From a virus (taxonomy: Duplodnaviria; Heunggongvirae; Uroviricota; Caudoviricetes), in IMG/VR virus record IMGVR_UViG_3300037280_000066, positions 1 through 54,060 of that record: a DNA stretch of 54,060 nt. The stretch is one strand, 5' to 3'. The notes under the pieces are model-generated. The model did no database searches. It saw only the letters and a list, made by a program, of their open reading frames with translations, and had not been told where the DNA came from. Positions 1 to 32,731 of this stretch are shown one piece after another. Both the position numbers and the translations under genes were made by a program. The number at the start of each line of letters is the position of its first letter. Position 1 is the first letter of the stretch.

Positions 1-18
1 ATTGAAATTCAGTAAACA

Positions 19-154
19 AGGGATAGTGCAGAATAGAAGTTCTTCACTTTTAATGACGAGGTTGTGGGTTCGAGTCCCATCATGACAGGCTTTACGCTTG
101 TTGTGTAACTCAATTGGCAGAGTACGATAAAACGTCTGTTCGCTTTCCTTCCCC
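19..154 (+). ncRNA. Y-RNA-like unit 1 (YrlA-type permuted tRNA domain with Lys-like CUUUUAA loop)
   Basis: GGGA/TCCC outer stem and GAATAGA/TCTGTTC inner stem. Cargo: TCA-CTTTTAA-TGA, T arm GTGGG-TTCGAGT-CCCAT, closed acceptor CATGACAGGC/GCTTGTTGTG, D arm ACTC-AATTGGCA-GAGT. Confidence 0.85.
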
Positions 155-163
155 TATAAATAT

Positions 164-294
164 TTACTTGGCAGTACAGTTTAGAGTTACTTCTTGCTGA
201 AAAAGATACTAGCTCAATTGGTTAGAGCATCAACAGTGATATGTTGAAGATGGGGTTCGAGTCCTTTTTACTCTCAACGTTTTTCTCCAAGTAA
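164..294 (+). ncRNA. Y-RNA-like unit 2 (D-anticodon-T arms in canonical order, no acceptor stem)
   Basis: TTACTTGG/CCAAGTAA outer stem. D arm GCTC-AATTGGTTA-GAGC, hairpin TCAACA-GTGATA-TGTTGA, T arm GGGG-TTCGAGT-CCTT. Confidence 0.8.
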
Positions 295-301
295 GCAATT
301 T

Positions 302-372
302 TCCGTAATAGTTTAGTGGAAAAACCTGTGCATATGCATACACAGTCTCTAGTTCAAATCTAGATTACGGAG
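302..372 (+). tRNA. tRNA-like gene A with abnormal 10-nt anticodon loop
   Basis: Acceptor TCCGTAA/TTACGGA, D arm GTTT/AAAC, CTGTG-CATATGCATA-CACAG, T arm TCTAG-TTCAAAT-CTAGA; no encoded CCA. Confidence 0.7.
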
Positions 373-374
373 TC

Positions 375-511
375 ATTGGAAAGTGTAGTTAAGGCATACT
401 TCAAAGGGGACTGTGGGTTGTCAGTTCGAATCTGACCCTTCCGATTATCGGCAGGTAGCTCAATGGTAGAGCAATAGTATAAAAAAGAAGCCTTTACGTT
501 TTTCTTCCAAT
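375..511 (+). ncRNA. Y-RNA-like unit 3 (YrlA-type permuted tRNA domain)
   Basis: ATTGGAA/TTCCAAT outer stem. T arm GTCAG-TTCGAAT-CTGAC, closed acceptor CCTTCCGA-TTA-TCGGCAGG, D arm GCTC-AATGGTA-GAGC, residual anticodon stem ACTGT/ATAGT. Confidence 0.85.
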
Positions 512-532
512 ATTAAGTTTAAAGATTAAAAA

Positions 533-670
533 GCATTAGATAGTGTAGATATCAGTTACTTCCATTCAAAGGAAGAGACAGGGGTTCGAATCCCCTCGTC
601 AGGTCTTATCCTGATGTGGACAAGTGGTTAAGTCGCTTAAAATATACTGAAATCGTTTTTCTTCTAATGT
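533..670 (+). ncRNA. Y-RNA-like unit 4 (YrlA-type permuted tRNA domain)
   Basis: GCATTAGA/TCTAATGT outer stem, GATATCAGT/ACTGAAATC inner stem. T arm AGGGG-TTCGAAT-CCCCT, closed acceptor CGTCAGG/CCTGATG, D arm GAC-AAGTGGTTAA-GTC. Confidence 0.85.
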
Positions 671-677
671 TAGATAT

Positions 678-775
678 CCAGAGGTAATTCAATGGCAGAT
701 GCTTGGCACTATGTCAACTTATGTTGATAGCAACAACGCTAGGTGTATGGAGGGTTCGATTCCTTTCCCTTTGGT
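678..775 (+). tRNA. tRNA-like gene B with greatly extended anticodon arm
   Basis: Acceptor CCAGAGG/CCTTTGG, D-like arm, CTTGGC/GCTAGG enclosing a ~30-nt insert with inner hairpin GTCAAC/GTTGAT, T arm GAGGG-TTCGATT-CCTTT. Confidence 0.65.
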
Positions 776-776
776 T

Positions 777-843
777 TTAGAGATAATTCAGTCTGGTAGA
801 ATGCTTGACGGAGTGGTCGTGGGTTCGAATCCCACTCTCTAAT
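777..843 (+). tRNA. tRNA-like gene C with truncated anticodon arm
   Basis: Acceptor TTAGAGA/TCTCTAA, D arm ATTC-AGTCTGGTA-GAAT, mini-arm CTT-GACG-GAG, T arm GTGGG-TTCGAAT-CCCAC. Confidence 0.7.
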
Positions 844-850
844 TGTAAGT

Positions 851-920
851 TCCAGAATAGCCTAATGGTAGGACACCCTCATTACGGAGGGAAACGTAGG
901 TTCGATTCCTGCTTCTGGTG
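851..920 (+). tRNA. tRNA-like gene D with 6-nt anticodon loop
   Basis: Acceptor CCAGAA/TTCTGG (1:72 mismatch), D arm CCT/AGG, CCCTC-ATTACG-GAGGG, T arm GTAGG-TTCGATT-CCTGC. Confidence 0.7.
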
Positions 921-926
921 TGTAAA

Positions 927-1063
927 GAACATTTAGTAGTGTAGATATCAGTTACTTCCATTATCAGGACGAGAAGGTGGTTTAATTCCATCATCTGGCA
1001 TATACCAGATTAGTTTATTGATAAAACACGTAAAATACTGAAATTGATTTTCTCTAAATGTTC
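927..1063 (+). ncRNA. Y-RNA-like unit 5 (permuted tRNA domain, degenerate T and D loops)
   Basis: GAACATTTAG/CTAAATGTTC outer stem; 5' arm identical to unit 4. T arm GGTGG-TTTAATT-CCATC, acceptor ATCTGG/CCAGAT, D arm GTTT/AAAC. Confidence 0.8.
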
Positions 1064-1075
1064 AAAAAGTTTTCA

Positions 1076-1205
1076 ATTGTATAGGACAGTGCAGACTGTG
1101 GTTACTTCGGTTAAATAAAATTCTTATAAAATTTTTAAAGGTGGTTCAAATCCATCGAATCCCTTAAATGGGAACAAACCATAGCCGTTTTACTTCCTGT
1201 ACAAT
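1076..1205 (+). ncRNA. Y-RNA-like unit 6 (anticodon-like arm + T arm + small hairpin)
   Basis: ATTGTATAGGA/TCCTGTACAAT outer stem, GACTGTGGT/ACCATAGCC inner stem. AAAATT-CTTATAA-AATTTT, GGTGG-TTCAAAT-CCATC, TCCC/GGGA. Confidence 0.8.
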
Positions 1206-1220
1206 GATATAAGTTTAAAT

Positions 1221-1287
1221 TTTGGGTAGTGTTAGGTAAAGGGTTACTTCATTGGCGAAAAAACACCCTTCCTGCTTTTCTCCCAAA
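1221..1287 (+). ncRNA. Y-RNA-like unit 7 (minimal, scaffold only)
   Basis: TTTGGG/CCCAAA outer stem; TAGTGTTA..GTTACTTC and GCTTTTCT motifs; ~14-nt cargo. Confidence 0.75.
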
Positions 1288-1303
1288 TAAAGTTTCAAAT
1301 CTT

Positions 1304-1372
1304 GTTTGGTAGTGTATTTGAGAGTTACTTCAACTTTAAATGATAAAATACTCTCAAAGTTTTTCTCCAAAC
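1304..1372 (+). ncRNA. Y-RNA-like unit 8 (minimal, scaffold only)
   Basis: GTTTGG/CCAAAC outer stem; perfect inner stem TTTGAGAGT/ACTCTCAAA; short AT-rich cargo. Confidence 0.78.
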
Positions 1373-1391
1373 TAAAAATTACATAAAACAC

Positions 1392-1538
1392 TTGGGAAGT
1401 GTAGAAGTCGGTTACTTCAAATAAATAATTATAAGAATATGGGTAGCCAATGAGCTACGATTGAATCAAAAGTTACATAAAACAAATTGTAATAAAAGCA
1501 GGGCATAAGCCCAATAGCCGAATTCGATTTTCTCCCAA
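1392..1538 (+). ncRNA. Y-RNA-like unit 9 (non-tRNA, multi-hairpin cargo)
   Basis: TTGGG/CCCAA outer stem, GAAGTCGGT/GCCGAATTC inner stem. Hairpins GTAGC/GCTAC, TTACA/TGTAA, GGGC-ATAA-GCCC. Confidence 0.75.
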
Positions 1539-1554
1539 TAAAATTTATAAACCT

Positions 1555-1640
1555 TTAGGTAGTGTAAGAGTGGGTTACTTCAAAAATTTATTTATAATAT
1601 GAATCTGTGAAAACTTATACCCATTCTGCTTTTCTCCTAA
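1555..1640 (+). ncRNA. Y-RNA-like unit 10 (short AT-rich cargo)
   Basis: TTAGG/CCTAA outer stem; inner stem AGAGTGGGT/ACCCATTCT; both conserved motifs present. Confidence 0.75.
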
Positions 1641-1641
1641 T

Positions 1642-1740
1642 AAAAATTATAATATCATTTTAATAATTGAACAAAAATTGGAAATCTGCAAGTATTTTCA
1701 AGGCTTCTCTAGAGATTATTAAAATGATATTGTAATTTTT
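1642..1740. repeat. 26-bp inverted repeat enclosing 47 nt
   Basis: AAAAATTATAATATCATTTTAATAAT (1642-1667) vs ATTATTAAAATGATATTGTAATTTTT (1715-1740); the one difference is a U-G pair on the + strand. Confidence 0.85.
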
Positions 1741-1750
1741 TAAGTTTAAT

Positions 1751-1896
1751 AAGTCATTTAGTAGTGTAGATTAGAGTTATATCTTTCCCCGTTATATGTG
1801 GGGAAATAGCTTAATTGGTAGAGCGTTGAGTGTGAAAACTCAAAGGTGAGGTTCGAGTCCTTATTTAGTCTCTTATTGATTTTCTCTAAATGATTT
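1751..1896 (+). ncRNA. Y-RNA-like unit 11 (tRNA domain opened at the T-arm/acceptor junction)
   Basis: AAGTCATTTAG/CTAAATGATTT outer stem. Closed acceptor TTTCCCC/GGGGAAA, D arm GCTT-AATTGGTA-GAGC, TTGAGT-GTGAAA-ACTCAA, T arm GTGAGG-TTCGAGT-CCTTAT. Confidence 0.8.
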
Positions 1897-1916
1897 AAAA
1901 ATATGCAAAAAAAGTA

Positions 1917-1946
1917 TTGACAATACATATCCGTATAGGTTATACT
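1917..1946 (+). promoter_or_regulatory. SigA-type promoter of the Ro60 gene
   Basis: TTGACA-N18-TATACT with an upstream A-tract. Confidence 0.7.
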
Positions 1947-2016
1947 AAGAAGGTAAGATATTGAGGAAGTTTTCCTCCCAATAAAAAATTTAATAGTCGA
2001 AAGCGAGGTAATAATA

Positions 2017-3498
2017 ATGTCAAAGTTTAATCAAACAGCAAGAGAAGAAAAGTTACAAACCACTAATAAGTCAGGTGTTCCTGCTTATGCAATGGCTGAG
2101 AAAGACAAGTTAGTAACACAAGTACTTACATCTTTATTCAATGAAAAGAAATACTATGGTGATAACTCAAAAGAGATTATCCAAACAGTAAAATCAATTC
2201 TTGAACATGATGCAAAGTTCATTGCTAACCTAGCCCTATTTGCAAGAAATGAAATGCATTTGAGAACTATTTCACATGTATTAACATCAGAACTTGCAAA
2301 TCATCCAAATGGTAAGCAGTATGCTAGAGCAACAATCAACAAGGTTGTTGAAAGAGTTGATGATATGTCAGAAATCTTGGCTTATTCATTAGACAAATAC
2401 TCAAAGCCTATCGCAAATTCCATGAAGAAAGGTTTAGTAGATGCTTTCTTAAGATTTGATGAATACTCTCTTGCAAAGTACAACAAAGACAGTAAGGAAA
2501 TCAAACTTAAAGATATCCTTTGCTTAACTCACCCAAGACCTACTACTACAGCACAAAGCGATATGTTCAAGAGATTGATGGAAGGTAACCTTGAAGTACC
2601 AAAGACTTGGGAAACTGAGTTGTCTGCTAAGGGTAATACTAAGGCAGTATGGGAAAACTTGATTACTGAAAAGAAACTTGGCTACATGGCTATGATGCGT
2701 AACCTTCGTAACATAATCAAATCAGGAGCTTCGAATATGAATGAAGTTTATTCTTTCTTAGCAAATGAGGAAAGAGTATTAAAGAATAAGCAGTTACCTT
2801 TCAGATATTACTCAGCATACAAAGTGTTGACAAATGAAGGTCTTGCTACTTCAAAGATACTTGATACATTAGAAACTGCTTTAAAGTTAAGTTGTAAAAA
2901 CGTTCAGCCTTTAAGTGGTAAAACACTTATTGCAGTTGATACTTCTGGCTCAATGTCAAGTCCTGTTAGTGCTAAAAGTGATATGACTTGCGTAGAAATT
3001 GGTATACTTATGATGGCAATGGCAAATTACATCTGTGATGATTCAATCTCTGTTGCTTTTGACACTTCATTAAGAGATATCACATTACCTACAAGCAATG
3101 GTATCATATCTAATGCGAAGAGCGTTAGAAACACTGGTGGTGGTACAGATATTACTCTTCCAATACAACACTTGATTAATAAAAACATCAAAGTTGATAG
3201 AATCATTATGTTATCTGATAATGAAATCAACTGTGGTTGGGACTCAGGTAGAAGTGGTGGATGGGGTAGACAATCACAAACAAGCTGTCAGAACTTGGTT
3301 GACCAGTACAGAAAAACAATCAATCCTGATGTATGGGTTCATGCTATTGACTTACAGGGCTACGGCACTCAACAGTTCAAAGGTAAGAATACTAACATCA
3401 TCGCAGGTTGGTCTGAGAAGACTCTGGAATTCATCTCAATGGCTGAAAAAGGCTTTGGCAACATCGTTTCAACTGTAGAAAGTTACTACTTTAAGTAG
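2017..3498 (+). CDS. rsr: Ro60/TROVE-domain RNA-binding protein with C-terminal vWA domain
   Basis: TROVE motifs (FDEYSLAKYN, L.HP.P, TWETELS, LGYMAMMRNLRN, QLPFRYYSAY) followed by vWA MIDAS DTSGSM; 493 aa. Confidence 0.95.
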   Translation: MSKFNQTAREEKLQTTNKSGVPAYAMAEKDKLVTQVLTSLFNEKKYYGDNSKEIIQTVKSILEHDAKFIANLALFARNEMHLRTISHVLTSELANHPNGKQYARATINKVVERVDDMSEILAYSLDKYSKPIANSMKKGLVDAFLRFDEYSLAKYNKDSKEIKLKDILCLTHPRPTTTAQSDMFKRLMEGNLEVPKTWETELSAKGNTKAVWENLITEKKLGYMAMMRNLRNIIKSGASNMNEVYSFLANEERVLKNKQLPFRYYSAYKVLTNEGLATSKILDTLETALKLSCKNVQPLSGKTLIAVDTSGSMSSPVSAKSDMTCVEIGILMMAMANYICDDSISVAFDTSLRDITLPTSNGIISNAKSVRNTGGGTDITLPIQHLINKNIKVDRIIMLSDNEINCGWDSGRSGGWGRQSQTSCQNLVDQYRKTINPDVWVHAIDLQGYGTQQFKGKNTNIIAGWSEKTLEFISMAEKGFGNIVSTVESYYFK

Positions 3499-3520
3499 TA
3501 GTAACTCTACATACAATATA

Positions 3521-3549
3521 AAGAGAACTCGAAAGGGTTCTCTTTTTTA
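3521..3549 (+). terminator. Rho-independent terminator after rsr
   Basis: AAGAGAACTC-GAAA-GGGTTCTCTT followed by a T-run. Confidence 0.85.
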
Positions 3550-3567
3550 TTTTTTCTTAAGAATATA

Positions 3568-3596
3568 TTGACAGTATTAAGGTTATCATATATAAT
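3568..3596 (+). promoter_or_regulatory. SigA-type promoter
   Basis: TTGACA-N17-TATAAT. Confidence 0.85.
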
Positions 3597-3614
3597 AATA
3601 AGTGAGGTGAGATT

Positions 3615-3938
3615 ATGGCATATGAAGATTTAACAAATGAGATTGAACAAGTAGAAAAGGAATTGTTGAGTTTGAAAACTCATGTTATGGCAAAAGAAGC
3701 AAGACTAAAAAGGTTAAAATCAAATTGCCCTCATGATTGGACAAAACCAATATTTGACCAAGAATCATATCAGAAAGAATATCTTACAGGTGAATATGAG
3801 ACTCAAGGTATTCACATGTATCCTAAATCAGAGTTTAGGACTGAATACAGGGACAGATGGAGTAGAACTTGTAAGATATGCACAGTAAAAGAATATACCT
3901 ATGAGAGAGTAGCTACACAATATGAACCTAAATTTTAA
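3615..3938 (+). CDS. Hypothetical protein (coiled coil plus Cys/His motif)
   Basis: GAGGTG RBS; CPHDW...CKIC. Confidence 0.7.
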   Translation: MAYEDLTNEIEQVEKELLSLKTHVMAKEARLKRLKSNCPHDWTKPIFDQESYQKEYLTGEYETQGIHMYPKSEFRTEYRDRWSRTCKICTVKEYTYERVATQYEPKF

Positions 3939-3947
3939 GGAGGTCTT

Positions 3948-4217
3948 ATGCTAAACAAACTCAAGAAATTGGTTAAGGAAACAATTCTTATTCACCAGTT
4001 GATAAGATTCAAGGATAAGGCTTGGTGTACTTACACAGAGGAACAGGCACAGACTATCTGGAAGAAGATAGGTAGTCAAATACCTAATCCTTACTACACT
4101 AGGATATCAACAGAGTGGGGACATGTAAAATGTAACCATGGAAAGTCTCAGGCAAGAATGGCATTGTTACATGAAATAGAATCATATATTAAATTTATAG
4201 GAGGTTATCATGAGTAA
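3948..4217 (+). CDS. Hypothetical protein
   Basis: AAGGAGG RBS; operon packing. Confidence 0.65.
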   Translation: MLNKLKKLVKETILIHQLIRFKDKAWCTYTEEQAQTIWKKIGSQIPNPYYTRISTEWGHVKCNHGKSQARMALLHEIESYIKFIGGYHE

Positions 4218-4605
4218 AGATTTAGTAAGCTATAACAGTAATGGATTATCAGAGCAAAAGCCAGAGATAGTGTATGAAACTACCAGAGTTATAAAAAATA
4301 CTGACAATGATATTGAAGTACATAACTTTGTATTTTTTACTATCAGAACTGCTGTGGTAGCTGATAATACAGCAGATGCAGTTTGCAGGGTTGCTAATGC
4401 ATTCAATCTTAGACATGGTGGTGCTTTTTGTCTTGATGTTAATTGTAATAATGGTAGAAGGTGTAAATGGCATATAGTTGTTACTGGAACTAAATATGCT
4501 ATTCAAAAGTTTGTAGCAGAAGCATCAAAGCTTTCTAGTGATTTGGTTTACAATTATCTTGAAGTTGGGGGCAAATGGATACCAGTGTTATCAGGAGATT
4601 GTTAA
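4210..4605 (+). CDS. Hypothetical protein
   Basis: AGGAGG RBS; overlaps previous stop. Confidence 0.65.
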   Translation: MSKDLVSYNSNGLSEQKPEIVYETTRVIKNTDNDIEVHNFVFFTIRTAVVADNTADAVCRVANAFNLRHGGAFCLDVNCNNGRRCKWHIVVTGTKYAIQKFVAEASKLSSDLVYNYLEVGGKWIPVLSGDC

Positions 4606-4813
4606 AAAGTTTTTCAAAAAGTATTGACAATATCATTCTTATTTGGTAAGATATAAGAGTAGTCAATACGAATTGAAAGGAGTGTATAATGAGAAGAGTT
4701 GATTGGTTTAAAGTTACAATATGGACTGTTGGATTGGCTTTATCAATTGGTATGTGGTCAGGTGCTATATATTTTGTTTATCATTTATTCACTAAATCTA
4801 GGTAGAAGAAGGG

Positions 4814-5389
4814 TTGTGTATTATGCAAACAACAGGATTAGGATTATTGTTTTTAATTGGTTTAATCATAGCAGGGGTTATTTCAGGATTTTGTTTATAT
4901 TGTACAATAGGGAAAGTAATAATTAAGGATTTCACTACAAATAAAGGAGAATATTCATCTTGTAGCAAATCAGAAATTTTGTTAGGTTGGAGTGTTTCTA
5001 TTGTAATATTTGCAATTTTTGCTTGGATATGTTATAATACATTTGTTACTGGTTACCATTTAGAGTATTCATGGAAATTCAATATTTATGCTCTGGAAGA
5101 TGGTAGTACAATAAAGGGTAGCAGATATTACATTGAAGAACAAAACAGATATTTTTATATGTCAGATTACAAAGAAGGTAAGAAAAAATATTCAGTAGAA
5201 ACCAATAAATCTTATATTGTGGAAGATGCAGATGAAAAACCTGAAATAATAGTATTTGAACCTGTAGCAGATAAGAAAACATGGTTTGCATCATGGGTAT
5301 TGCAGTCAAATGATTCATTAAGAGAATACAGAATAGTTGTTCCTAAGAAAACAGTTACTACAAATTTCAATGTTGATTTAAAAAACTAG
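4814..5389 (+). CDS. Membrane protein with two N-terminal TM segments
   Basis: Two hydrophobic stretches followed by a soluble domain. Confidence 0.7.
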   Translation: MCIMQTTGLGLLFLIGLIIAGVISGFCLYCTIGKVIIKDFTTNKGEYSSCSKSEILLGWSVSIVIFAIFAWICYNTFVTGYHLEYSWKFNIYALEDGSTIKGSRYYIEEQNRYFYMSDYKEGKKKYSVETNKSYIVEDADEKPEIIVFEPVADKKTWFASWVLQSNDSLREYRIVVPKKTVTTNFNVDLKN

Positions 5390-5399
5390 GAGGTTAAGT

Positions 5400-5756
5400 A
5401 TGGGAAAAGAATTAAACACAAGTGAGTTTTATGATTTATGTAATAAGAATTTTCCTAAGTGGAATAAGGTTGGTGATGATGTTTGTTTCGTAATGTTGGA
5501 ACTTACAAAAGGAAAATTTGCTTCTTCTTATTTAGCTTCTGAGTTTGAGAATATGGCTACTGGTGATTTTTATTACAGAGATTGGACAAAAAGCACTTTA
5601 CCTTTTGTAGATGAAGGAGAAGTATATTGGTCAGGTTTTAGTTTTCAATATCTAGCTGATGGCAAGAAATTCTTAGATACATTTCCAGTAAAAGGTAAGG
5701 GTAATTGGATGGATGATTATCTGGAATTCAACAGACAATGTAATGCAAAAAGATAA
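5400..5756 (+). CDS. Hypothetical protein
   Basis: AGGAGG RBS. Confidence 0.65.
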   Translation: MGKELNTSEFYDLCNKNFPKWNKVGDDVCFVMLELTKGKFASSYLASEFENMATGDFYYRDWTKSTLPFVDEGEVYWSGFSFQYLADGKKFLDTFPVKGKGNWMDDYLEFNRQCNAKR

Positions 5757-5771
5757 ACTAGGAGGAACAAA

Positions 5772-6305
5772 ATGAAAAAAGTAACCCATATAGTAAATTT
5801 GTTAGCAGGAGCAGGATGTGGGAAGTCAACTATGGCTTCTAGGATATTTGCAGAATTGAAAGACCTGAATATAAATTGTGAATTAGTAAGTGAATTTGCA
5901 AAAGATTTAGTTTGGGAAGAAAGAACTGCAACATTCAGTAATGAGCTTTATATATTTGCAAAACAACAACACAGGATACACAGATTAATTGGTAAAGTTG
6001 ATGTTATTGTTACTGATGCACCATTGTTGTTGAAGTTGATGTATATGCCTAAAGATTTAGATTTTAGTAATCTTGTTTTAGATATTCATAACAAATACAA
6101 TAATATGAATTTTGTTTTGAATAGGGTAAAACCTTACAATCCAATTGGAAAAAATCAAGATGAAGATGAAGCTAGGGTATATGATTCAAAAATCAAGTCT
6201 TTATTAGACCTTCATGATATTAAATATAATATTGTAAATGGTAATAAAGAAGGAGCTATGGAAGTTGTAACAAAAGTTTGCAATTATTTACAAATACAAA
6301 GATAG
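5772..6305 (+). CDS. P-loop kinase/ATPase (AAA_28, NadR-kinase-like)
   Basis: Walker A GAGCGKST, EFAK, VIVTD. Confidence 0.75.
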   Translation: MKKVTHIVNLLAGAGCGKSTMASRIFAELKDLNINCELVSEFAKDLVWEERTATFSNELYIFAKQQHRIHRLIGKVDVIVTDAPLLLKLMYMPKDLDFSNLVLDIHNKYNNMNFVLNRVKPYNPIGKNQDEDEARVYDSKIKSLLDLHDIKYNIVNGNKEGAMEVVTKVCNYLQIQR

Positions 6306-12912: not shown

Positions 12913-14313
12913 ATGAATTTTGAAACTAAAAGTATAGATATTAAAATACCAACACCTGTAAGTTATGTGCTAAATGTACTATTTAATAATAATCATAAAG
13001 CATATGTTGTAGGTGGATGTGTCAGAGATAGTATATTAAGAAAGAGTCCTAAAGATTGGGATGTTTGTACATCTGCAACACCAGAAGAAGTTATTGCTAT
13101 GTTCAGGTCTAAAGACTATGCTGTTATTGAAACTGGTCTTAAACATGGTACAGTTACAGCTATGGTTGGTGATATGCCTATAGAAATAACTACTTTTAGA
13201 GTTGATGGTGAATATTCAAATGGTAGATGCCCTGATGATGTAAAATTTGTATCAGACCTTAAGGAAGATTTGAGCAGGAGAGATTTTACAATTAACGCTA
13301 TGGCATATAACTACGCAGAAGGATTAATTGATTTGTTTGATGGTGTTAGTGACTTAGGACAAGGTATTATTCGTTGTGTAGGAAATGCAAATGAACGCTT
13401 TCAGGAAGATGGTTTAAGAATGCTTAGAGCTATACGTTTTTCTGCTAGATTTGGATTTAAGATAGAAGATAACACTTACACAGCAATACAATACAATAAT
13501 GAATTGATTAACAAATGTAGTGCTGAAAGAATTAGGGATGAACTTAGCCAGATTATTATATGTTCTCCTAGTGGACTAAAACAAATGTTTGTAACAGGAT
13601 TATTACAACATATACTGCCAGAACTTGTTAAGACAATGCCCTGCAAACAAAACAATGAATATCATAAATATACTGTAGGAAACCATATTCTTAAGACTAT
13701 GGAATGCATTGATAATGATTTAGCTCTTAGATTAACTATGATGCTTCATGACATTGCTAAACCACCATGTAAGACAAAAGATATACATGGTGTTGACCAT
13801 TTCTATGGTCATAATCAAATGGGAGCAGATATGGCAGTAGAAATTCTAGGTAGATTAAGATATGAAAATCTTATCATTATGAAAGTTAGAGATTTAATAC
13901 TATATCATGATGCAGAGATTCATGACAACATAAAGTCTGTAAGAAGATGGTTAAACAGAATAGGTGAAGAGCGTTTTAGAGAGTTGATTAAGGTTAAGGT
14001 TGCAGATATTTTTGGTCAAAATGAAGACTTCTTCTTTGAAAGAATGAATAAGTTTTTAGAAATTGGTGTATTGATTGATGAAGTTATTGAAAAGAATCAA
14101 TGTTTTAGTAAGAGAGACTTGGCTATCAATGGTAGAGACTTGATGGATGCAGGATATCCACAGGGAAAAATGATTGGTTTTATAATTGATGCTTTGGTTG
14201 ATAAAGTAATTGAAAATCCAGAGTATAATACAAAAGAAAAACTCTTGGAGATTGTGCCAACTATAAGAGGATTTCGTAGATTAACTGGTGTTATAGAGGA
14301 AGGAATGAAATAA
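12913..14313 (+). CDS. cca: tRNA nucleotidyltransferase (CCA-adding class II) with HD domain
   Basis: VGGCVRD, DWD, EITTFR, RRDFTINAMA, EDGLRMLRAIRF, LHDIAK. Confidence 0.9.
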   Translation: MNFETKSIDIKIPTPVSYVLNVLFNNNHKAYVVGGCVRDSILRKSPKDWDVCTSATPEEVIAMFRSKDYAVIETGLKHGTVTAMVGDMPIEITTFRVDGEYSNGRCPDDVKFVSDLKEDLSRRDFTINAMAYNYAEGLIDLFDGVSDLGQGIIRCVGNANERFQEDGLRMLRAIRFSARFGFKIEDNTYTAIQYNNELINKCSAERIRDELSQIIICSPSGLKQMFVTGLLQHILPELVKTMPCKQNNEYHKYTVGNHILKTMECIDNDLALRLTMMLHDIAKPPCKTKDIHGVDHFYGHNQMGADMAVEILGRLRYENLIIMKVRDLILYHDAEIHDNIKSVRRWLNRIGEERFRELIKVKVADIFGQNEDFFFERMNKFLEIGVLIDEVIEKNQCFSKRDLAINGRDLMDAGYPQGKMIGFIIDALVDKVIENPEYNTKEKLLEIVPTIRGFRRLTGVIEEGMK

Positions 14314-17439: not shown

Positions 17440-18213
17440 ATGGGTGAAATAAATAGTTTTGATAAGGAATACGCATTTTTAAGCAATTTCTTTGAAGCCC
17501 CTGTTGTATATGAAGGTCTTACATATAAAAGCAATGAATCTGCTTTTCAATCTGCTAAAGTGTTGGATATGGAAGAAAGAGAATGCTTTTGTGCATTGAA
17601 TCCTTCTACGGCAAAAAGATTAGGTAGACAAATTGCTTTGCGTAAGGATTGGGAACAAGTCAAAGATAAGGTAATGGAAGATATTGTGAGAGACAAGTTC
17701 ACTAGGCATGGTTACTTAAAAGATAGTTTGTTGAGAACTGGAACAGATAATCTTGTTGAAGGGAATCATTGGAATGACATTTATTGGGGAATTTGTAATG
17801 GTGTTGGTAAAAACATGTTAGGTAAAATTCTTATGAAAATAAGACAGGAATTACTAGATATAGTTGTGAATGAAACCAATACTGACAAACTTATTCAATA
17901 CTATGTTGTAAATGCTGATTTAGGAATGAGTATTGGTAAAACATCAGCACAAGTTGCTCATGCATGTATGATTGATTGTGAAAAATACAGAGGTACAGAG
18001 TTATATGAACAATGGAGAAGAACAGCAATAACTAAGGTAATTTTAAGAGGTACAGAGGAATTATTAATAAAACTACATAATGACTTTGGTTACACTTTGA
18101 TTATTGATAAGGGATGGACTGAGATAGCCCCTGATAGTAAAACTGTTGTTGTTGCTCCTGTAATGTGGAAATCTCAAGCACCAGAAATCATTCAAAAATT
18201 ACGTTTACTATAA
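17440..18213 (+). CDS. NADAR (YbiA-like) domain fused to peptidyl-tRNA hydrolase Pth2
   Basis: FLSNF..E..FQ..K, WEQVK..VM, KF, LVEGN.W.D.YWG, GKNMLGKILM; then VVNADLGMSIGKTSAQVAHA...DKGWTEIAPDSKTV. Confidence 0.85.
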   Translation: MGEINSFDKEYAFLSNFFEAPVVYEGLTYKSNESAFQSAKVLDMEERECFCALNPSTAKRLGRQIALRKDWEQVKDKVMEDIVRDKFTRHGYLKDSLLRTGTDNLVEGNHWNDIYWGICNGVGKNMLGKILMKIRQELLDIVVNETNTDKLIQYYVVNADLGMSIGKTSAQVAHACMIDCEKYRGTELYEQWRRTAITKVILRGTEELLIKLHNDFGYTLIIDKGWTEIAPDSKTVVVAPVMWKSQAPEIIQKLRLL

Positions 18214-26085: not shown

Positions 26086-28272
26086 ATGAGAATATTGGTA
26101 TTAACTCGTGGAGCAATGGGTAGTGGAAAATCAACATTTATCAAGGAGAATTTTCTTGAACAATACACCTTAAGTGCAGACACAATCAGGTTGCTATGCC
26201 AAAGTCCTATATTAAAACCAGATGGTGGTTTAGGTATTAGCCAAAACAATGACAGAAAGGTTTGGACTTTACTATTTGAAATGTTAGAAGAAAGAATGAT
26301 TAGAGGTGAATTTACAGTAATTGATGCCACTAATACAAAAACTTCTGAAATGAACAAATATAAAGCTTTAGCAGAAAAATACAGATTTAAAATTATCTGT
26401 GTGGATTTTACAGATGTAACAATGGAACTTGCTCTTTATAGGAATAAATGTAGAGAAGGTTATAAATTTGTGCCAGAGGATGCTATCAAGAATGCATATT
26501 CAAGATTTGCTACACAGAATGTGCCATCTGGTATCCAAGTAATTAAGCCTGAACAGTTTGAAAACACAATACAATTAAAACCTATCAATCTTTCAGCATA
26601 CACAAAAATTCATCACATTGGAGATATTCATGGATGTTATACTGTCTTGAATGATTACCTTCAAGGAAATTTACATAGTGATGAAATGTACATATTTTTA
26701 GGTGACTTTATTGATAGAGGTATTGAGAATGCAGAGGTTATAAAATTTATGTGTTCTATCATGGATGAACCTAATGTGATAATGTTAGAAGGAAATCATG
26801 AAAGATGGCTATGGTGTTGGGCTAATGATATACCATCTAAGAGTCCTGAATTTGAACATAATACCAAGAAGGAATTGATGGATAAGGGTATTAATAAGAA
26901 ACAAGTGAGAATGTTTTATCGCAAATTAAGGCAGTTAGCATACTATACATACAATGAAAAAATAGTATTAGTAACACATGGAGGACTAAGCACCATACCA
27001 AGTAATCTTACATACATAGCAACAGAGCAATTAATAAAGGGTACTGGTGATTACAAAGACATGGAAGTAACAAATGAGTCATTCTTACATAACACAACTG
27101 AAAATTGCTATCAAATCCATGGTCACAGAAATGTATCTGGCTCTGATATTCAAATTAATGAAAGGTGTTATAATTTAGAAGGTAAGATTGAGTTTGGTGG
27201 ATATTTAAGAGTTGTGACACTTGATGTTAATGGATTCGTAACAATTGAAAAGAAAAATACAATTTTCAATCCTTCTGTACATCAAGTTCAAGAAACAAGA
27301 GCAAATATCACTAAGCAAGTTATGTCAAATAATGATTTTTTGCAAATGTTGAGAAGAAATAAAAACATCAAAGAAAAGCAATTTGGAAATATTTCTTCAT
27401 TTAACTTTACCAGAGAAGTGTTTTATGACAAGATTTGGAATGAGCAAACTATTAAGGCAAGAGGATTATTTTTAAACACAAGCACAGGTGAAATTGTTAT
27501 CAGGTCATATAATAAGTTCTTCAATATAGATGAAAGACCTGAAACAAAGTTGGATAAATTACAGACCACTTTAAACTTCCCTGTTGATGCTTACATAAAG
27601 GAAAATGGTTATCTTGGATTAGTAGGCTATGATTCAGAATCAGACCAGTTAGTAATTGCTTCAAAGAGTTCATTGACAGGTGATTTTAAGGAATGGTTTC
27701 AGCATATTTTCTTTAATACAGTAAGTGCAGAAGATAGGGAAACTCTTAAATTCTTTCTAAAGGAAAATAACTGTTGCTTTGTATTTGAGGTTATAGACCC
27801 TGAGAATGACCCCCACATGATAGAATATGAAAATGCTCATTTAGTATTGTTAGATGTTATATACAGAGAGGTAGAGTTTAGAAAAATGCCTTTCACAGAT
27901 TTAGCCACTATTGCTATGCAGTTTGGTTTAAAATACAAGTTGATATCAAAAACAATAAAGGATTGGGCAGACTTCTACAAGTGGTATAATGACAATGAGC
28001 AAGGTTGGGATGAAACTCTGGAAGGTTATGTAATAGAAGATAAAAATGGATTCATGACAAAAGTAAAGTTGCCTTTCTACCATTTTTGGAAAAGAATGCG
28101 TACCTTAAAGGATGAAGTTGGTAAGAAGGGTTACATAAAGAATACAAGTAGTCTTACAACTCCATTAGCCAATGAGTTTTATGGTTGGGCAAGAGATAAA
28201 TTTAAAGAGACACCCGAACTATTGAATTCAGGCATTATAGCATTAAGAAAAATGTTCTACAATTTCAAATAA
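26086..28272 (+). CDS. Pnkp-type RNA repair enzyme: 5' kinase + metallophosphoesterase + RNA ligase
   Basis: GAMGSGKST/DATN; GDIHG, GDFIDRG, GNHE; ARGLF, KFFN, ligase motif I KENG, EGYVI, KVK. Confidence 0.9.
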   Translation: MRILVLTRGAMGSGKSTFIKENFLEQYTLSADTIRLLCQSPILKPDGGLGISQNNDRKVWTLLFEMLEERMIRGEFTVIDATNTKTSEMNKYKALAEKYRFKIICVDFTDVTMELALYRNKCREGYKFVPEDAIKNAYSRFATQNVPSGIQVIKPEQFENTIQLKPINLSAYTKIHHIGDIHGCYTVLNDYLQGNLHSDEMYIFLGDFIDRGIENAEVIKFMCSIMDEPNVIMLEGNHERWLWCWANDIPSKSPEFEHNTKKELMDKGINKKQVRMFYRKLRQLAYYTYNEKIVLVTHGGLSTIPSNLTYIATEQLIKGTGDYKDMEVTNESFLHNTTENCYQIHGHRNVSGSDIQINERCYNLEGKIEFGGYLRVVTLDVNGFVTIEKKNTIFNPSVHQVQETRANITKQVMSNNDFLQMLRRNKNIKEKQFGNISSFNFTREVFYDKIWNEQTIKARGLFLNTSTGEIVIRSYNKFFNIDERPETKLDKLQTTLNFPVDAYIKENGYLGLVGYDSESDQLVIASKSSLTGDFKEWFQHIFFNTVSAEDRETLKFFLKENNCCFVFEVIDPENDPHMIEYENAHLVLLDVIYREVEFRKMPFTDLATIAMQFGLKYKLISKTIKDWADFYKWYNDNEQGWDETLEGYVIEDKNGFMTKVKLPFYHFWKRMRTLKDEVGKKGYIKNTSSLTTPLANEFYGWARDKFKETPELLNSGIIALRKMFYNFK

Positions 28273-29230: not shown

Positions 29231-30340
29231 ATGGAAAGGCAGTTAGCATCTGTACAAAAGGTGCTAAACATTAGACCTATTCCTAATGCAGATAACATAG
29301 AAGTTGCAGAAGTATTAGGATGGGAATGTATAGTACTAAAAGCAGAAAATGTTCAAGTAGGTGACCTTGTAGTATACATAGAAATTGATTCAATTGTTCC
29401 AGATAGGGCAGAGTTTGAATTTCTAAGAGACAGAAAATTCAGGGTTAGAACAATCAAGTTAAGAAAACAAATAAGTCAAGGATTAGTTTTACCTATTGGA
29501 ACTTTACCAAAAGGTAAGTACAGTGAAGGGCAGGATGTAACAGAAATCTTAGGAATAAGAAAGTATGACCCACAAGCAGACAAAGAAAGAGATATGTGGG
29601 AAGACAAGATAAGAGCAAGCAAGAACCCAATACATAAGTTTTTACTAAGATATCCATGGTACAGGCAGTTTGTAATGAAGCCAAAGAAAGGCAAATTCCC
29701 TTCATTCATTAAGAAGACTGATGAAGATAGAATTCAACTTTTTCCAAGACTTCCTGAGACACAGAAAGATACAATCTTTACTGCAACAGAGAAGCTTGAT
29801 GGGCAATCAGTTACATACTTCTTACAAAGAAATAAAGGTAAACTGAAATGGTTTGAATTTTACAAGAAACCAAGTGATTTTATATTTGGAGTATGCAGTA
29901 GAAATGTTTACCTTGAAAAAGCAGATACCAGTTCATATTGGACAATTGCTAATAACTACAAGATAGAAGATGTATTACATAATCTGTTAGGTAATCAAGA
30001 CTTAATTGTACTGCAAGGTGAAATTATAGGAGAAGGTATTCAGGGGAATAAATACAAGGTTACTGGATATGATTTCTATGCATTTAATCTTATCTTTGGC
30101 ACAGAGTTACAAGGTAGCGTTGAAGCTAAAGATATCCTAGCATATCAAGGTGTGAAGTTTGTTCCTATATTAGATACTAACTTTACTTTAAAGCCAACCA
30201 TTCAAGAGAATGTTGACTATGCACTAGGCAAATCTGTTCTCCTTCCTGTACTTAGAGAAGGTGTTGTAATCAGGAATGAAGCAAAGGGATTAAGTTACAA
30301 GATAATCAATCCTGAATTTCTCCTAAAGAATGATGAATAA
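29231..30340 (+). CDS. ATP-dependent RNA ligase, DRB0094 family
   Basis: N-terminal PIPNADNIE...ISQGL domain; TDEDRIQ, TEKLDG, QGE, REGVV, YKIIN. Confidence 0.88.
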   Translation: MERQLASVQKVLNIRPIPNADNIEVAEVLGWECIVLKAENVQVGDLVVYIEIDSIVPDRAEFEFLRDRKFRVRTIKLRKQISQGLVLPIGTLPKGKYSEGQDVTEILGIRKYDPQADKERDMWEDKIRASKNPIHKFLLRYPWYRQFVMKPKKGKFPSFIKKTDEDRIQLFPRLPETQKDTIFTATEKLDGQSVTYFLQRNKGKLKWFEFYKKPSDFIFGVCSRNVYLEKADTSSYWTIANNYKIEDVLHNLLGNQDLIVLQGEIIGEGIQGNKYKVTGYDFYAFNLIFGTELQGSVEAKDILAYQGVKFVPILDTNFTLKPTIQENVDYALGKSVLLPVLREGVVIRNEAKGLSYKIINPEFLLKNDE

Positions 30341-31507: not shown

Positions 31508-32731
31508 TTGGAAACAAAGAATGCGTTATATCTGGTAAAGGTTGAGCCTAATGCGAATAATAATAAGTATTATCGCATGATAGATAATGGCAATGGAACT
31601 TTTACTGCTCAGTATGGTAGAATTGGTGTTGAGAAGTTTCAGACAGCTACATATTCTATTTCTCAATGGAATAGTAAACTAAATGAAAAACTCAGTAGCA
31701 AAAAAGGTTACATTGACCAAACTAGGTTAGTGGCAGAAACAACTGTAAAGGCAAAGAAGAATAAGGATTACATTGATATTGAATCTGTATCCATTTCTCA
31801 AATTGTTGCTAGATTACAGGCAATGGCTAAACAAGCAATTCAAGATAACTACACAATCTCTTCAAACAAAGTTACACAGGCAATGATTGATGAAGCTCAA
31901 ATTACTCTGAATAACCTCATTCAAACATCAACATTAAAAGATTTCAATAAAGTTTTGGTTGATTTATTCCAAATAATTCCTAGAAAAATGAAGAAGGTTG
32001 CAGATTGTTTAGCAGATAGTGATAAGGATTATGCAAACATTCTTCAAAGAGAGCAAGACTTACTTGATGTTATGAGAGGTCAAGTTATCCAACAGGCAAT
32101 TGTTGAAGAGGAAGTTGAAGAAGATAAGCCATTATCAAATCAGACAATACTTGATGCTATGGGTTTAAGGTTTGAAGAACTTGTCCCTGCTGATGTAGTG
32201 TTAATTAAACAGAACTTGGGTTCAGCTAGTAATAAGTATCATCAAGGTTGGAGAGTTACCAATTTGCGTTCTCAGGAGAGATTTGATAAGTTTATTGCAG
32301 AGAATAAAATTCAAAATAAGAAACTGCTGTGGCATGGTTCAAGGAATGAGAATTGGTGGTCAATTGTTAATACAAGTTTGGTGTTAAGACCAAATGCAGT
32401 CATTAGTGGTAAGATGTTTGGATATGGTATTTACTTTGCACCAAAGGCTGAAAAGTCTCTAGGATACACTTCTTTAAGTGGTTCATATTGGGCAGGTGGC
32501 AATTCCAATTCAGCATTCATGAGTTTGTATGATGTTGCTTATGGCAAAGCATATGATGTACACTCATTTGACAGCAAGTATTATGACTTCAATTATGAGA
32601 AATTACAACAGAATTGCACAGGAGCTAATTGTTTACATGCTCATAGTGGCAATGGAATGTTAAGGAATGATGAAATTATTGTCTACAAGGAAGACCAGTT
32701 GACAATAAAGTACTTAGTAGAATTAAGATAA
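31508..32731 (+). CDS. PARP-family ADP-ribosyltransferase with WGR and helical domains
   Basis: NNNKYY...YGRIG (WGR), helical region with IIPR, catalytic LWHGS, GKMFGYGIYFA..KS.GY, NDEIIVY. Confidence 0.88.
   Translation: METKNALYLVKVEPNANNNKYYRMIDNGNGTFTAQYGRIGVEKFQTATYSISQWNSKLNEKLSSKKGYIDQTRLVAETTVKAKKNKDYIDIESVSISQIVARLQAMAKQAIQDNYTISSNKVTQAMIDEAQITLNNLIQTSTLKDFNKVLVDLFQIIPRKMKKVADCLADSDKDYANILQREQDLLDVMRGQVIQQAIVEEEVEEDKPLSNQTILDAMGLRFEELVPADVVLIKQNLGSASNKYHQGWRVTNLRSQERFDKFIAENKIQNKKLLWHGSRNENWWSIVNTSLVLRPNAVISGKMFGYGIYFAPKAEKSLGYTSLSGSYWAGGNSNSAFMSLYDVAYGKAYDVHSFDSKYYDFNYEKLQQNCTGANCLHAHSGNGMLRNDEIIVYKEDQLTIKYLVELR

Follow-up and report, generated by a model that had tools for sequence, protein, structure and literature searches.

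The first 54 kb (54,060 nucleotides (nt), hereafter the window) of the 182,060-nt, 92% complete virus record IMGVR_UViG_3300037280_000066 carry a row of small RNA units that ends 120 nt before a gene for a Ro60/Rsr homolog. In Y RNAs the stem formed by the two ends binds Ro60 and the other end brings in a partner, the RNA acting as a tether. We propose, with moderate confidence, that the row is a family of Ro60-binding Y RNAs in which a shared scaffold bears tRNA-mimic ends attached at three connectors of the cloverleaf junction, in inherited classes and, more tentatively, with a different factor for each mimic. The joining of cargo to scaffold at different points in different units, first put forward in an initial annotation made from sequence alone, is far beyond chance (ARAGORN; 0 of 1000 shuffles), and the survey of related arrays which that annotation suggested finds the same layouts again in other phages.

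One scaffold and three cargo layouts

The scaffold consists, from 5′ to 3′, of an outer stem, the motif AGUGYAG, a 7-base-pair (bp) inner stem that carries a mismatch, always at the same position, the constant motif GUUACUUC and the variable cargo, after which the 3′ half supplies the inner-stem partner, the pyrimidine tract UUUUCU and the outer-stem partner; AGUGYAG and UUUUCU face each other as an internal loop between the outer and inner stems. A unit finder that demands only the inner- and outer-stem pairings recovers 12 units (5–7 of 7 inner-stem and 5–6 of 6 outer-stem pairs), with stem sequences that differ between units. Eleven of them lie in the window upstream of the Ro60 gene (Table 1), all present where they had been annotated, the first just before position 164, at which the annotated region began. 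The twelfth (unit 0) lies on the other side of the contig join: the record ends overlap by ~120 nt, window positions 1–120 repeating the last ~120 nt, and the array runs across. The constant GUUACUUC, with copies for example at 186–193, 555–562 and 1101–1108, is the most conserved part of the units and persists down to 22–30% Ro60 identity, despite pairing in a class-specific manner: it provides the 5′ strand of an anticodon-like stem in class i, is part of a UUCG-tetraloop hairpin in the class of unit 6, and pairs weakly or not at all in units 2 and 11.

Class i (units 0, 1, 3, 4 and 5) follows the order described for YrlA, in which the T arm, a closed acceptor and the D arm are enclosed by the end-formed stem, an order that is absent from units 2, 6 and 11. 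The annotated T-acceptor(closed)-D order of units 1, 3, 4 and 5 agrees with the folds, with Rfam for units 1 and 3 and with ARAGORN, subject to the correction that an anticodon-like hairpin also precedes the variable region and T arm, which places the class i graft point between the D and anticodon arms of whole cloverleaves. With a stand-in anticodon arm, these four units score 112.6–125.1 in ARAGORN, above all 30 of their own shuffles. The Rfam YrlA model (RF02553), run in E-value mode, matches units 3 and 1 at 34.4 and 29.3 bits, short of its gathering score of 69, and returns no match for the other units. The anticodon-like hairpin, which in unit 4 has a 5-bp stem and a 7-nt loop (CUUCC-AUUCAAA-GGAAG), starts at a fixed offset; its stem is perfect over 5 bp in 26 of 64 class i units from many phages, against ~5 expected from the 12 registers tried, and its variable positions covary across the 64. 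We rely on these perfect stems and covarying positions because re-permutation of class i with its own anticodon hairpin, which yields 56 ARAGORN calls among the 64 units, also passes 69% of part-shuffled controls and is thus uninformative on the hairpin. Most anticodon-like loops in the 41 phage loci with class i units, units 1 and 4 of the window among them, read CU-NNU-AA (GUU, UGU, UCU, UAU, UUU), the pattern of tRNAs reading codons that begin with A.

Units 2 and 11 instead present the D, anticodon and T arms in native order, and are referred to below as T3. Unit 2 comprises a D arm, a 6-bp stem (230–235/242–247) closed by the loop GUGAUA (236–241) and a T arm ending at 267; its Rfam tRNA match covers model positions 8–63, that is, the D, anticodon and T arms without the acceptor, for which the best pairing is only 4 of 7 in an open and 5 of 7 in a closed arrangement, neither of them convincing. 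In unit 11, UUUCCCC (1784–1790) pairs over 7 of 7 positions with GGGGAAA (1800–1806) into a closed acceptor hairpin, followed by a D arm, a 6-bp anticodon arm (1826–1843; loop GUGAAA) and a T arm (1847–1863). Its minimum-energy fold (z-score −2.3) contains the inner stem and exactly the helices that the initial annotation had named. Both units had thus been read correctly, unit 2 as D-anticodon-T with no acceptor stem and unit 11 as the same order behind a closed acceptor, and they share the 6-bp stem and GTGAWA hexaloop pointed out at the time. When unit 11 is circularized, which joins the T arm to UUUCCCC, ARAGORN reports a tRNA at default settings (111.9); in native order the unit is missed at default and attains only 93.0, with a different parse, at a lowered threshold. 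The Rfam tRNA model (RF00005) aligns from positions 1 to 71 with 1800–1871 (39.8 bits, above the gathering score), with 2 of 7 acceptor pairs broken.

Unit 6 represents a third layout, referred to as T2. It is composed of a UUCG hairpin (1101–1117), an anticodon arm AAAUU/CUUAUAA/AAUUU (1118–1134), a T arm (1140–1156) and a small hairpin (1160–1173), and its Rfam tRNA match again spans model positions 8–63. The order of anticodon arm, T arm and small hairpin stands as annotated, but the unit is not opened inside a D arm: the place of that arm is occupied by a UUAC-UUCG-GU(U)AA hairpin formed from the constant motif and GGU(U)AA. The AT-only anticodon stem, for which unit 6 had been regarded as the weakest case, proves to be a conserved helix that covaries across 11 phages, with the same layout in 10 other phage units. 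A 7-nt anticodon loop is found in unit 6 and not in units 2 and 11, whose 6-nt loops ARAGORN reports as 'tRNA-???'. An open 7-bp acceptor with a free 3′ end is found in none of the three: unit 11 pairs over 5 of 7 positions with the downstream strand versus 7 of 7 in the closed upstream hairpin, unit 2 reaches the 4 of 7 given above, and unit 6 has none.

Re-permuted cargoes of units 2, 6 and 11 lie above shuffled controls. Scored with ARAGORN, with a stand-in acceptor for units 2 and 6 and in circularized form for unit 11, they reach 110.9, 113.2 and 111.9, whereas none of 1000 dinucleotide shuffles per unit attains the real score (shuffle maxima 96.8, 85.7 and 92.6 for units 2, 6 and 11). 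The same holds for a second control set that keeps the T arm and shuffles the D and anticodon parts (0 of 1000 for each unit). Furthermore, the three scores fall inside the range of the 26 true tRNAs of the phage (102.7–122.0).

Recurrence across phage Ro60 loci

Relatives were sought with the scaffold motif (AGUGYAG, a gap of 6–9 nt, GUUACUUC), which by itself gives 118 viral contigs (in 14 the match adjoins a Ro60 gene), and with a Ro60 profile, which matches at least 548 viral contigs; we retrieved 80 of the latter. We scanned 97 phage Ro60 loci on both strands, the opposite strand serving as control, and assigned units to classes by running ARAGORN on constructs with the parts re-joined; individual loci and genomes are cited by our L and G labels. 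The default ARAGORN threshold was rejected as too lax for class i, since 37–39% of shuffles pass it, and a cut-off of at least 112, reached by 1.1% of shuffles, was adopted for strong calls. The 'short' and 'other' classes of the finder, with 206 units on the control strand, were not counted. By this procedure, 41 loci contain strong class i units (59 in all) and 15 contain confident units of class ii, which includes T2 and T3 (18 in all). Neither class appears on the control strand, and the two occur together in nine loci, that of the window included. Only 6.2% of shuffles are called class ii at all, and 16 of the 18 units beat all 40 of their own shuffles. A further 8 of 26 automatic class ii calls had been dropped as true tRNAs lying between false scaffold halves.

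T2 accounts for 12 class ii units. As MAFFT and RNAalifold recovered only the T stem, with the anticodon arms misaligned, the arms were parsed by position: the anticodon stem is paired over 5 of 5 positions in 10 of the 11 tabulated units, each time with a different sequence (for example AAAUU/AAUUU, UUAAA/UUUAA, CAGAA/UUCUG and UUGGU/ACCAA). A hairpin of 4–7 bp follows the T arm in 5 of the 11, directly in three, and resembles a closed acceptor, which places the T2 graft where the 5′ strand of the acceptor meets the D arm.

T3, distinguished by a true D arm, includes besides units 2 and 11 units in G014/L142, L147, L145 and L148 and probably one in L203. The G014 unit (Ro60 30% identical) matches tRNA model positions 5–66 at 53.9 bits and has no acceptor at all. 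Those of L147 (Ro60 53% identical) and of L145/G017 (Ro60 ~60% identical over the part compared; a weak class ii call) have closed acceptors paired over 7 of 7 and 6 of 7 positions, respectively, and short anticodon loops, that of L147 like the loop of unit 11. L148:852 holds a whole tRNA in the scaffold, with an open 7-of-7 acceptor followed by ACCA. In an alignment of six T3 sequences, 86.9% of cells pair, as compared to 67.7% in shuffles (0 of 500 reach the real value) and 30–57% with slid partners, and 10 of 14 pairs show double changes. Complete tRNAs with an open acceptor and encoded CCA occur inside scaffold units as Ile-UAU (L145 reverse strand, ~870–1075; G017) and Leu-CAG (L148:869–974).

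In four further cases (G004/L133, G017/L145, L179 and L194) it is the outer stem of the scaffold that is closed by a tight loop while the acceptor is open, followed in G017 by CCA. Such class iii calls were kept only with a complementary, tightly closed outer stem; several others were rejected as joins between neighboring class i units. Upon removal of the scaffold, which sits between the D and anticodon arms at position 26, the open-acceptor forms score 109.9–127.3 in ARAGORN.

In the closest relative found (L146:1631–2230; Ro60 62% identical), three units are poor in cargo and one, with a variant constant GUUACUCC, belongs to class i; many tRNA genes are interleaved, and there is no unit of the unit 11 type. 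A full transfer-messenger RNA (L132:4555–4903, minus strand; genome G003, Ro60 45% identical; 119.5 bits) lies ~1.6 kb upstream of Ro60, beyond the Y-RNA array. Among deposited phages, megablast of window positions 1–6000 gives no match, and the best deposited Ro60 is <32% identical to that of the window.

Origin of the classes and alternative explanations

The initial annotation interpreted the layouts as independent captures of tRNA sequence, conceivably through circularized intermediates given two RNA ligases in the window. The ligases are real (Table 1), and the tRNA-Ile(UAU) with CCA in G017 and L148:852 with its open acceptor and ACCA, both in scaffolds, could be intermediates of such a route, in which ligated tRNAs would be copied back into DNA. 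Capture within this phage is not supported by the cargoes themselves, however. Units 2 and 11 match each other best in their cores (43 of 57), which are closer to one another than to any phage tRNA, and they share the odd 6-bp stem and hexaloop; the similarity of cargoes to the 26 phage tRNAs stays within the spread among those tRNAs, with no cargo unusually close; each topology recurs in phages with Ro60 only 30–60% identical; and a search of the 92%-complete genome found no reverse transcriptase, tRNA splicing endonuclease (tRNA_int_endo) or RtcB. We therefore regard capture as very unlikely and, on account of the similarity of units 2 and 11 and the recurrence in distant phages, suggest that these two units are paralogs from a duplication and that the classes are old, inherited and spread by unit duplication.

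For class i and the open-acceptor forms a simple connection exists. The open-acceptor, closed-scaffold form is a circular permutation of class i, and two tandem open-acceptor genes contain a class i unit between them; a tandem duplication at the DNA level can therefore convert one form into the other. Such a conversion agrees with, and elaborates, the published proposal of an origin of YrlA in dimeric tRNA transcripts (10.1101/312249). Tandem duplication leaves T2 and T3 unexplained, their graft points being different.

It is also unlikely, in our estimation, that the units are precursors, namely permuted or interrupted tRNA genes from which the scaffold is removed to free tRNAs or halves, as in red algae, with the free tRNA-like genes between units (see below) as RNase P/Z punctuation. 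Such processing would be compatible with the placement of promoters, one strong promoter lying inside positions 1–2100 and another just upstream of unit 1, with the open acceptors and encoded CCA of relatives, with the CCA-adding enzyme and ligases of the phage, and with Mycobacterium smegmatis YrlA, an RNase P substrate to which CCA is added (Chen 2014, quoted in 10.1101/312249). No decoding tRNA could result in the window, however, where the acceptors are closed or missing, the loops of units 2 and 11 have only 6 nt and unit 6 is devoid of a true D arm; no splicing endonuclease was found in the genome; and it is the scaffold, adjoining Ro60, that is conserved. Highly improbable is a reading in which units 2, 6 and 11 are decayed tRNA genes, unit 11 perhaps even an ordinary one, that merely happen to lie between scaffold halves. 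The above-threshold Rfam match in unit 11, the ARAGORN call of a tRNA with an odd loop at 202–275 in unit 2 and the true tRNAs among the automatic class ii calls in relatives all speak for it. Yet the downstream acceptor strand of unit 11 both pairs less well than the upstream one and overlaps the inner scaffold stem, and the upstream pairing wins in the fold; its closed layout is kept in L147 and L145; and the layout of unit 6 is preserved with covariation in 10 other units.

Several observations weigh against the reading of the array as a Y-RNA family with inherited graft classes. With the T arm kept, the margins over the controls are small (110.9 versus 109.6 for unit 2 and 111.9 versus 111.4 for unit 11), and unit 2 folds no better than its shuffles (z-score +0.54). 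Two class ii calls are weak, 3 of 40 shuffles reaching those in L145 and L174. The preference for inheritance over capture draws on similarity and recurrence rather than on a rooted tree, and the functional part of the proposal is one of analogy.

Known systems, proposed function and gene neighborhood

YrlA has been described as resembling a circularly permuted tRNA and is bound by bacterial and mycobacteriophage Ro60/Rsr (Chen et al. 2014, PMC4201824; structure in Wang et al. 2018, 10.1101/312249), its tRNA-like end being recognized by tRNA enzymes (PMC4201824). The phage units share with it the location beside Ro60, the pairing of 5′ and 3′ ends into a protein-binding stem and, in units 1, 3, 4 and 5, the order of T arm, closed acceptor and D arm. 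They differ in their scores against the YrlA model (29–34 bits), in the anticodon-like hairpin of class i, where the solved YrlA has no anticodon loop, in the other order of units 2, 6 and 11, and in number, with twelve units in a row where YrlA occurs as one to a few. The initial annotation's remark that only one topology is known holds for YrlA but not overall, as Chen et al. 2014 (PMC4201824) modeled Deinococcus radiodurans Yrn1 in the opposite order, in which a D-like loop is followed by an 'anticodon arm' whose loop has 6 nt and then by a T arm. Compared by feature description, units 2 and 11 have the layout of Yrn1, a native D/anticodon-like/T order with a hexaloop inside the Ro-binding stem; the D arm of Yrn1 is doubtful and a variable region is missing, whereas the D arm is canonical in units 2 and 11, and unit 11 also has its acceptor closed. 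Moreover, the two published orientations come from different organisms and not from side-by-side positions on one scaffold.

Thermus phage phiLo likewise has a Ro60 with Y-like RNAs just upstream, Yrl1 and Yrl2, which the protein binds, and it also forms a complex with host PNPase (PMC12135203); in that case there are two RNAs and no array, the Ro60 is 27.8% identical, and the searched text of PMC12135203 does not mention tRNA-like, YrlA or anticodon. The circularly permuted tRNA genes known from Cyanidioschyzon merolae and from some archaea (cited in 10.1101/312249), which give working tRNAs through a circular intermediate and a splicing endonuclease, have in common with the units the rotated tRNA parts and the initially closed acceptor; the phage genome, in contrast, yielded no tRNA_int_endo, and the mimics could not decode. 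A literature search found no publication on several graft points per scaffold, on the class of unit 6 or on open-acceptor forms.

In the proposed model all units would dock through the shared scaffold on the phage Ro60/Rsr homolog, their presumed protein partner, and would present unchargeable tRNA shapes that differ in which parts are free. Class i, whose acceptor is closed, is grafted between the D arm and the anticodon arm; T2 at the junction of the acceptor 5′ strand and the D arm, the latter replaced by the constant-motif hairpin, with a short closed hairpin after the T arm; and T3 at the acceptor side, which preserves the native succession of D, anticodon and T arms, preceded in unit 11 by a closed pseudo-acceptor that unit 2 does not have. 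With less confidence, each mimic may bring or hold a different tRNA-binding factor at Ro60, among which, by analogy with phiLo, host PNPase would be included. A kinase-phosphatase-Rnl1 fusion, a second RNA ligase, a CCA-adding enzyme and Pth2, all encoded by the phage, suggest that the setting would be the damage and repair of tRNA; that the units act as decoys for host tRNA-cutting enzymes, or recruit them, is a guess. A single phage locus offers three differently wired tRNA mimics on the same handle, each conserved across many phages, as a natural panel for what a tRNA-like end recruits, extending the catalog of tRNA mimicry beyond the single solved YrlA layout. The open-acceptor relatives, in turn, bear on how YrlA arose from tRNA, and the search rules (constant motif plus graft class) find such RNAs where the Rfam YrlA model stays far below threshold.

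A broader idea, which we consider possible but doubtful, is that the Ro60 handle is a general display platform placed on three of the four tRNA-junction connectors, in a family that spans CCA-ended true tRNAs, with the handle at position 26 or nested inside, to dead mimics, the forms arising by tandem duplication. If so, the RNAs on Ro60 would grade from functional tRNAs into dead mimics, and one use could be the shielding, delivery or sacrifice of tRNA-shaped RNAs under attack by host anticodon nucleases.

Table 1. Features of the array and of its gene neighborhood (window positions, except for unit 0, which is given in record G000)
Feature	Position	Strand	Evidence
Unit 0 (class i)	G000:181726-181858, across contig join		unit finder
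Unit 1 (class i)	18-155	+	unit finder; Rfam YrlA 29.3 bits at 30-145; ARAGORN 116.8
Unit 2 (class ii/T3)	163-295	+	Rfam tRNA 8-63, 25.9 bits; ARAGORN 110.9 with stand-in acceptor
Unit 3 (class i)	375-511	+	Rfam YrlA 34.4 bits at 389-500; ARAGORN 120.9
Unit 4 (class i)	532-671	+	minimum-energy fold; ARAGORN 125.1
Unit 5 (class i, weakest of class)	928-1062	+	ARAGORN 112.6, above all own shuffles
Unit 6 (class ii/T2)	1078-1203	+	Rfam tRNA 8-63, 24.4 bits; ARAGORN 113.2
Units 7, 8, 10 (scaffold, little cargo) and unit 9 (non-tRNA cargo)	1221-1641	+	unit finder; folds
Unit 11 (class ii/T3, closed)	1753-1894	+	minimum-energy fold; circularized ARAGORN 111.9; Rfam tRNA 39.8 bits
Ro60/Rsr homolog	2017-3498	+	Pfam TROVE 2.5e-32, Ro60 vWA 2.6e-11
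CCA-adding enzyme	12913-14313		
NADAR-Pth2 fusion	17440-18213		
Kinase-phosphatase-Rnl1 ligase fusion	26086-28272		
Second RNA ligase	29231-30340		
PARP-like protein with WGR domain	31508-32731		

The only strong promoter inside positions 1–2100 is a sigma-70-like one of the Ro60 gene (1917–1946, plus strand; agreement with the consensus at 11 of 12 positions). At the contig end, another strong promoter, TTGACA-17-TATACT (G000:181880–181910), closely precedes unit 1. Given these two promoters, the units are probably cut from a long transcript, perhaps at four free tRNA-like genes situated between units (302–372, ~673–775, 777–843 and 851–920). Their acceptor and T arms are good, but the anticodon arm is odd or lacking; three of the four match in Rfam, at 42.3, 46.5 and 40.0 bits. 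They may serve as RNase P/Z cutting signals for the array transcript. All long reading frames of the window are on the plus strand, and the five genes listed after Ro60 in Table 1 form a dense tRNA/RNA repair and NAD-related set.

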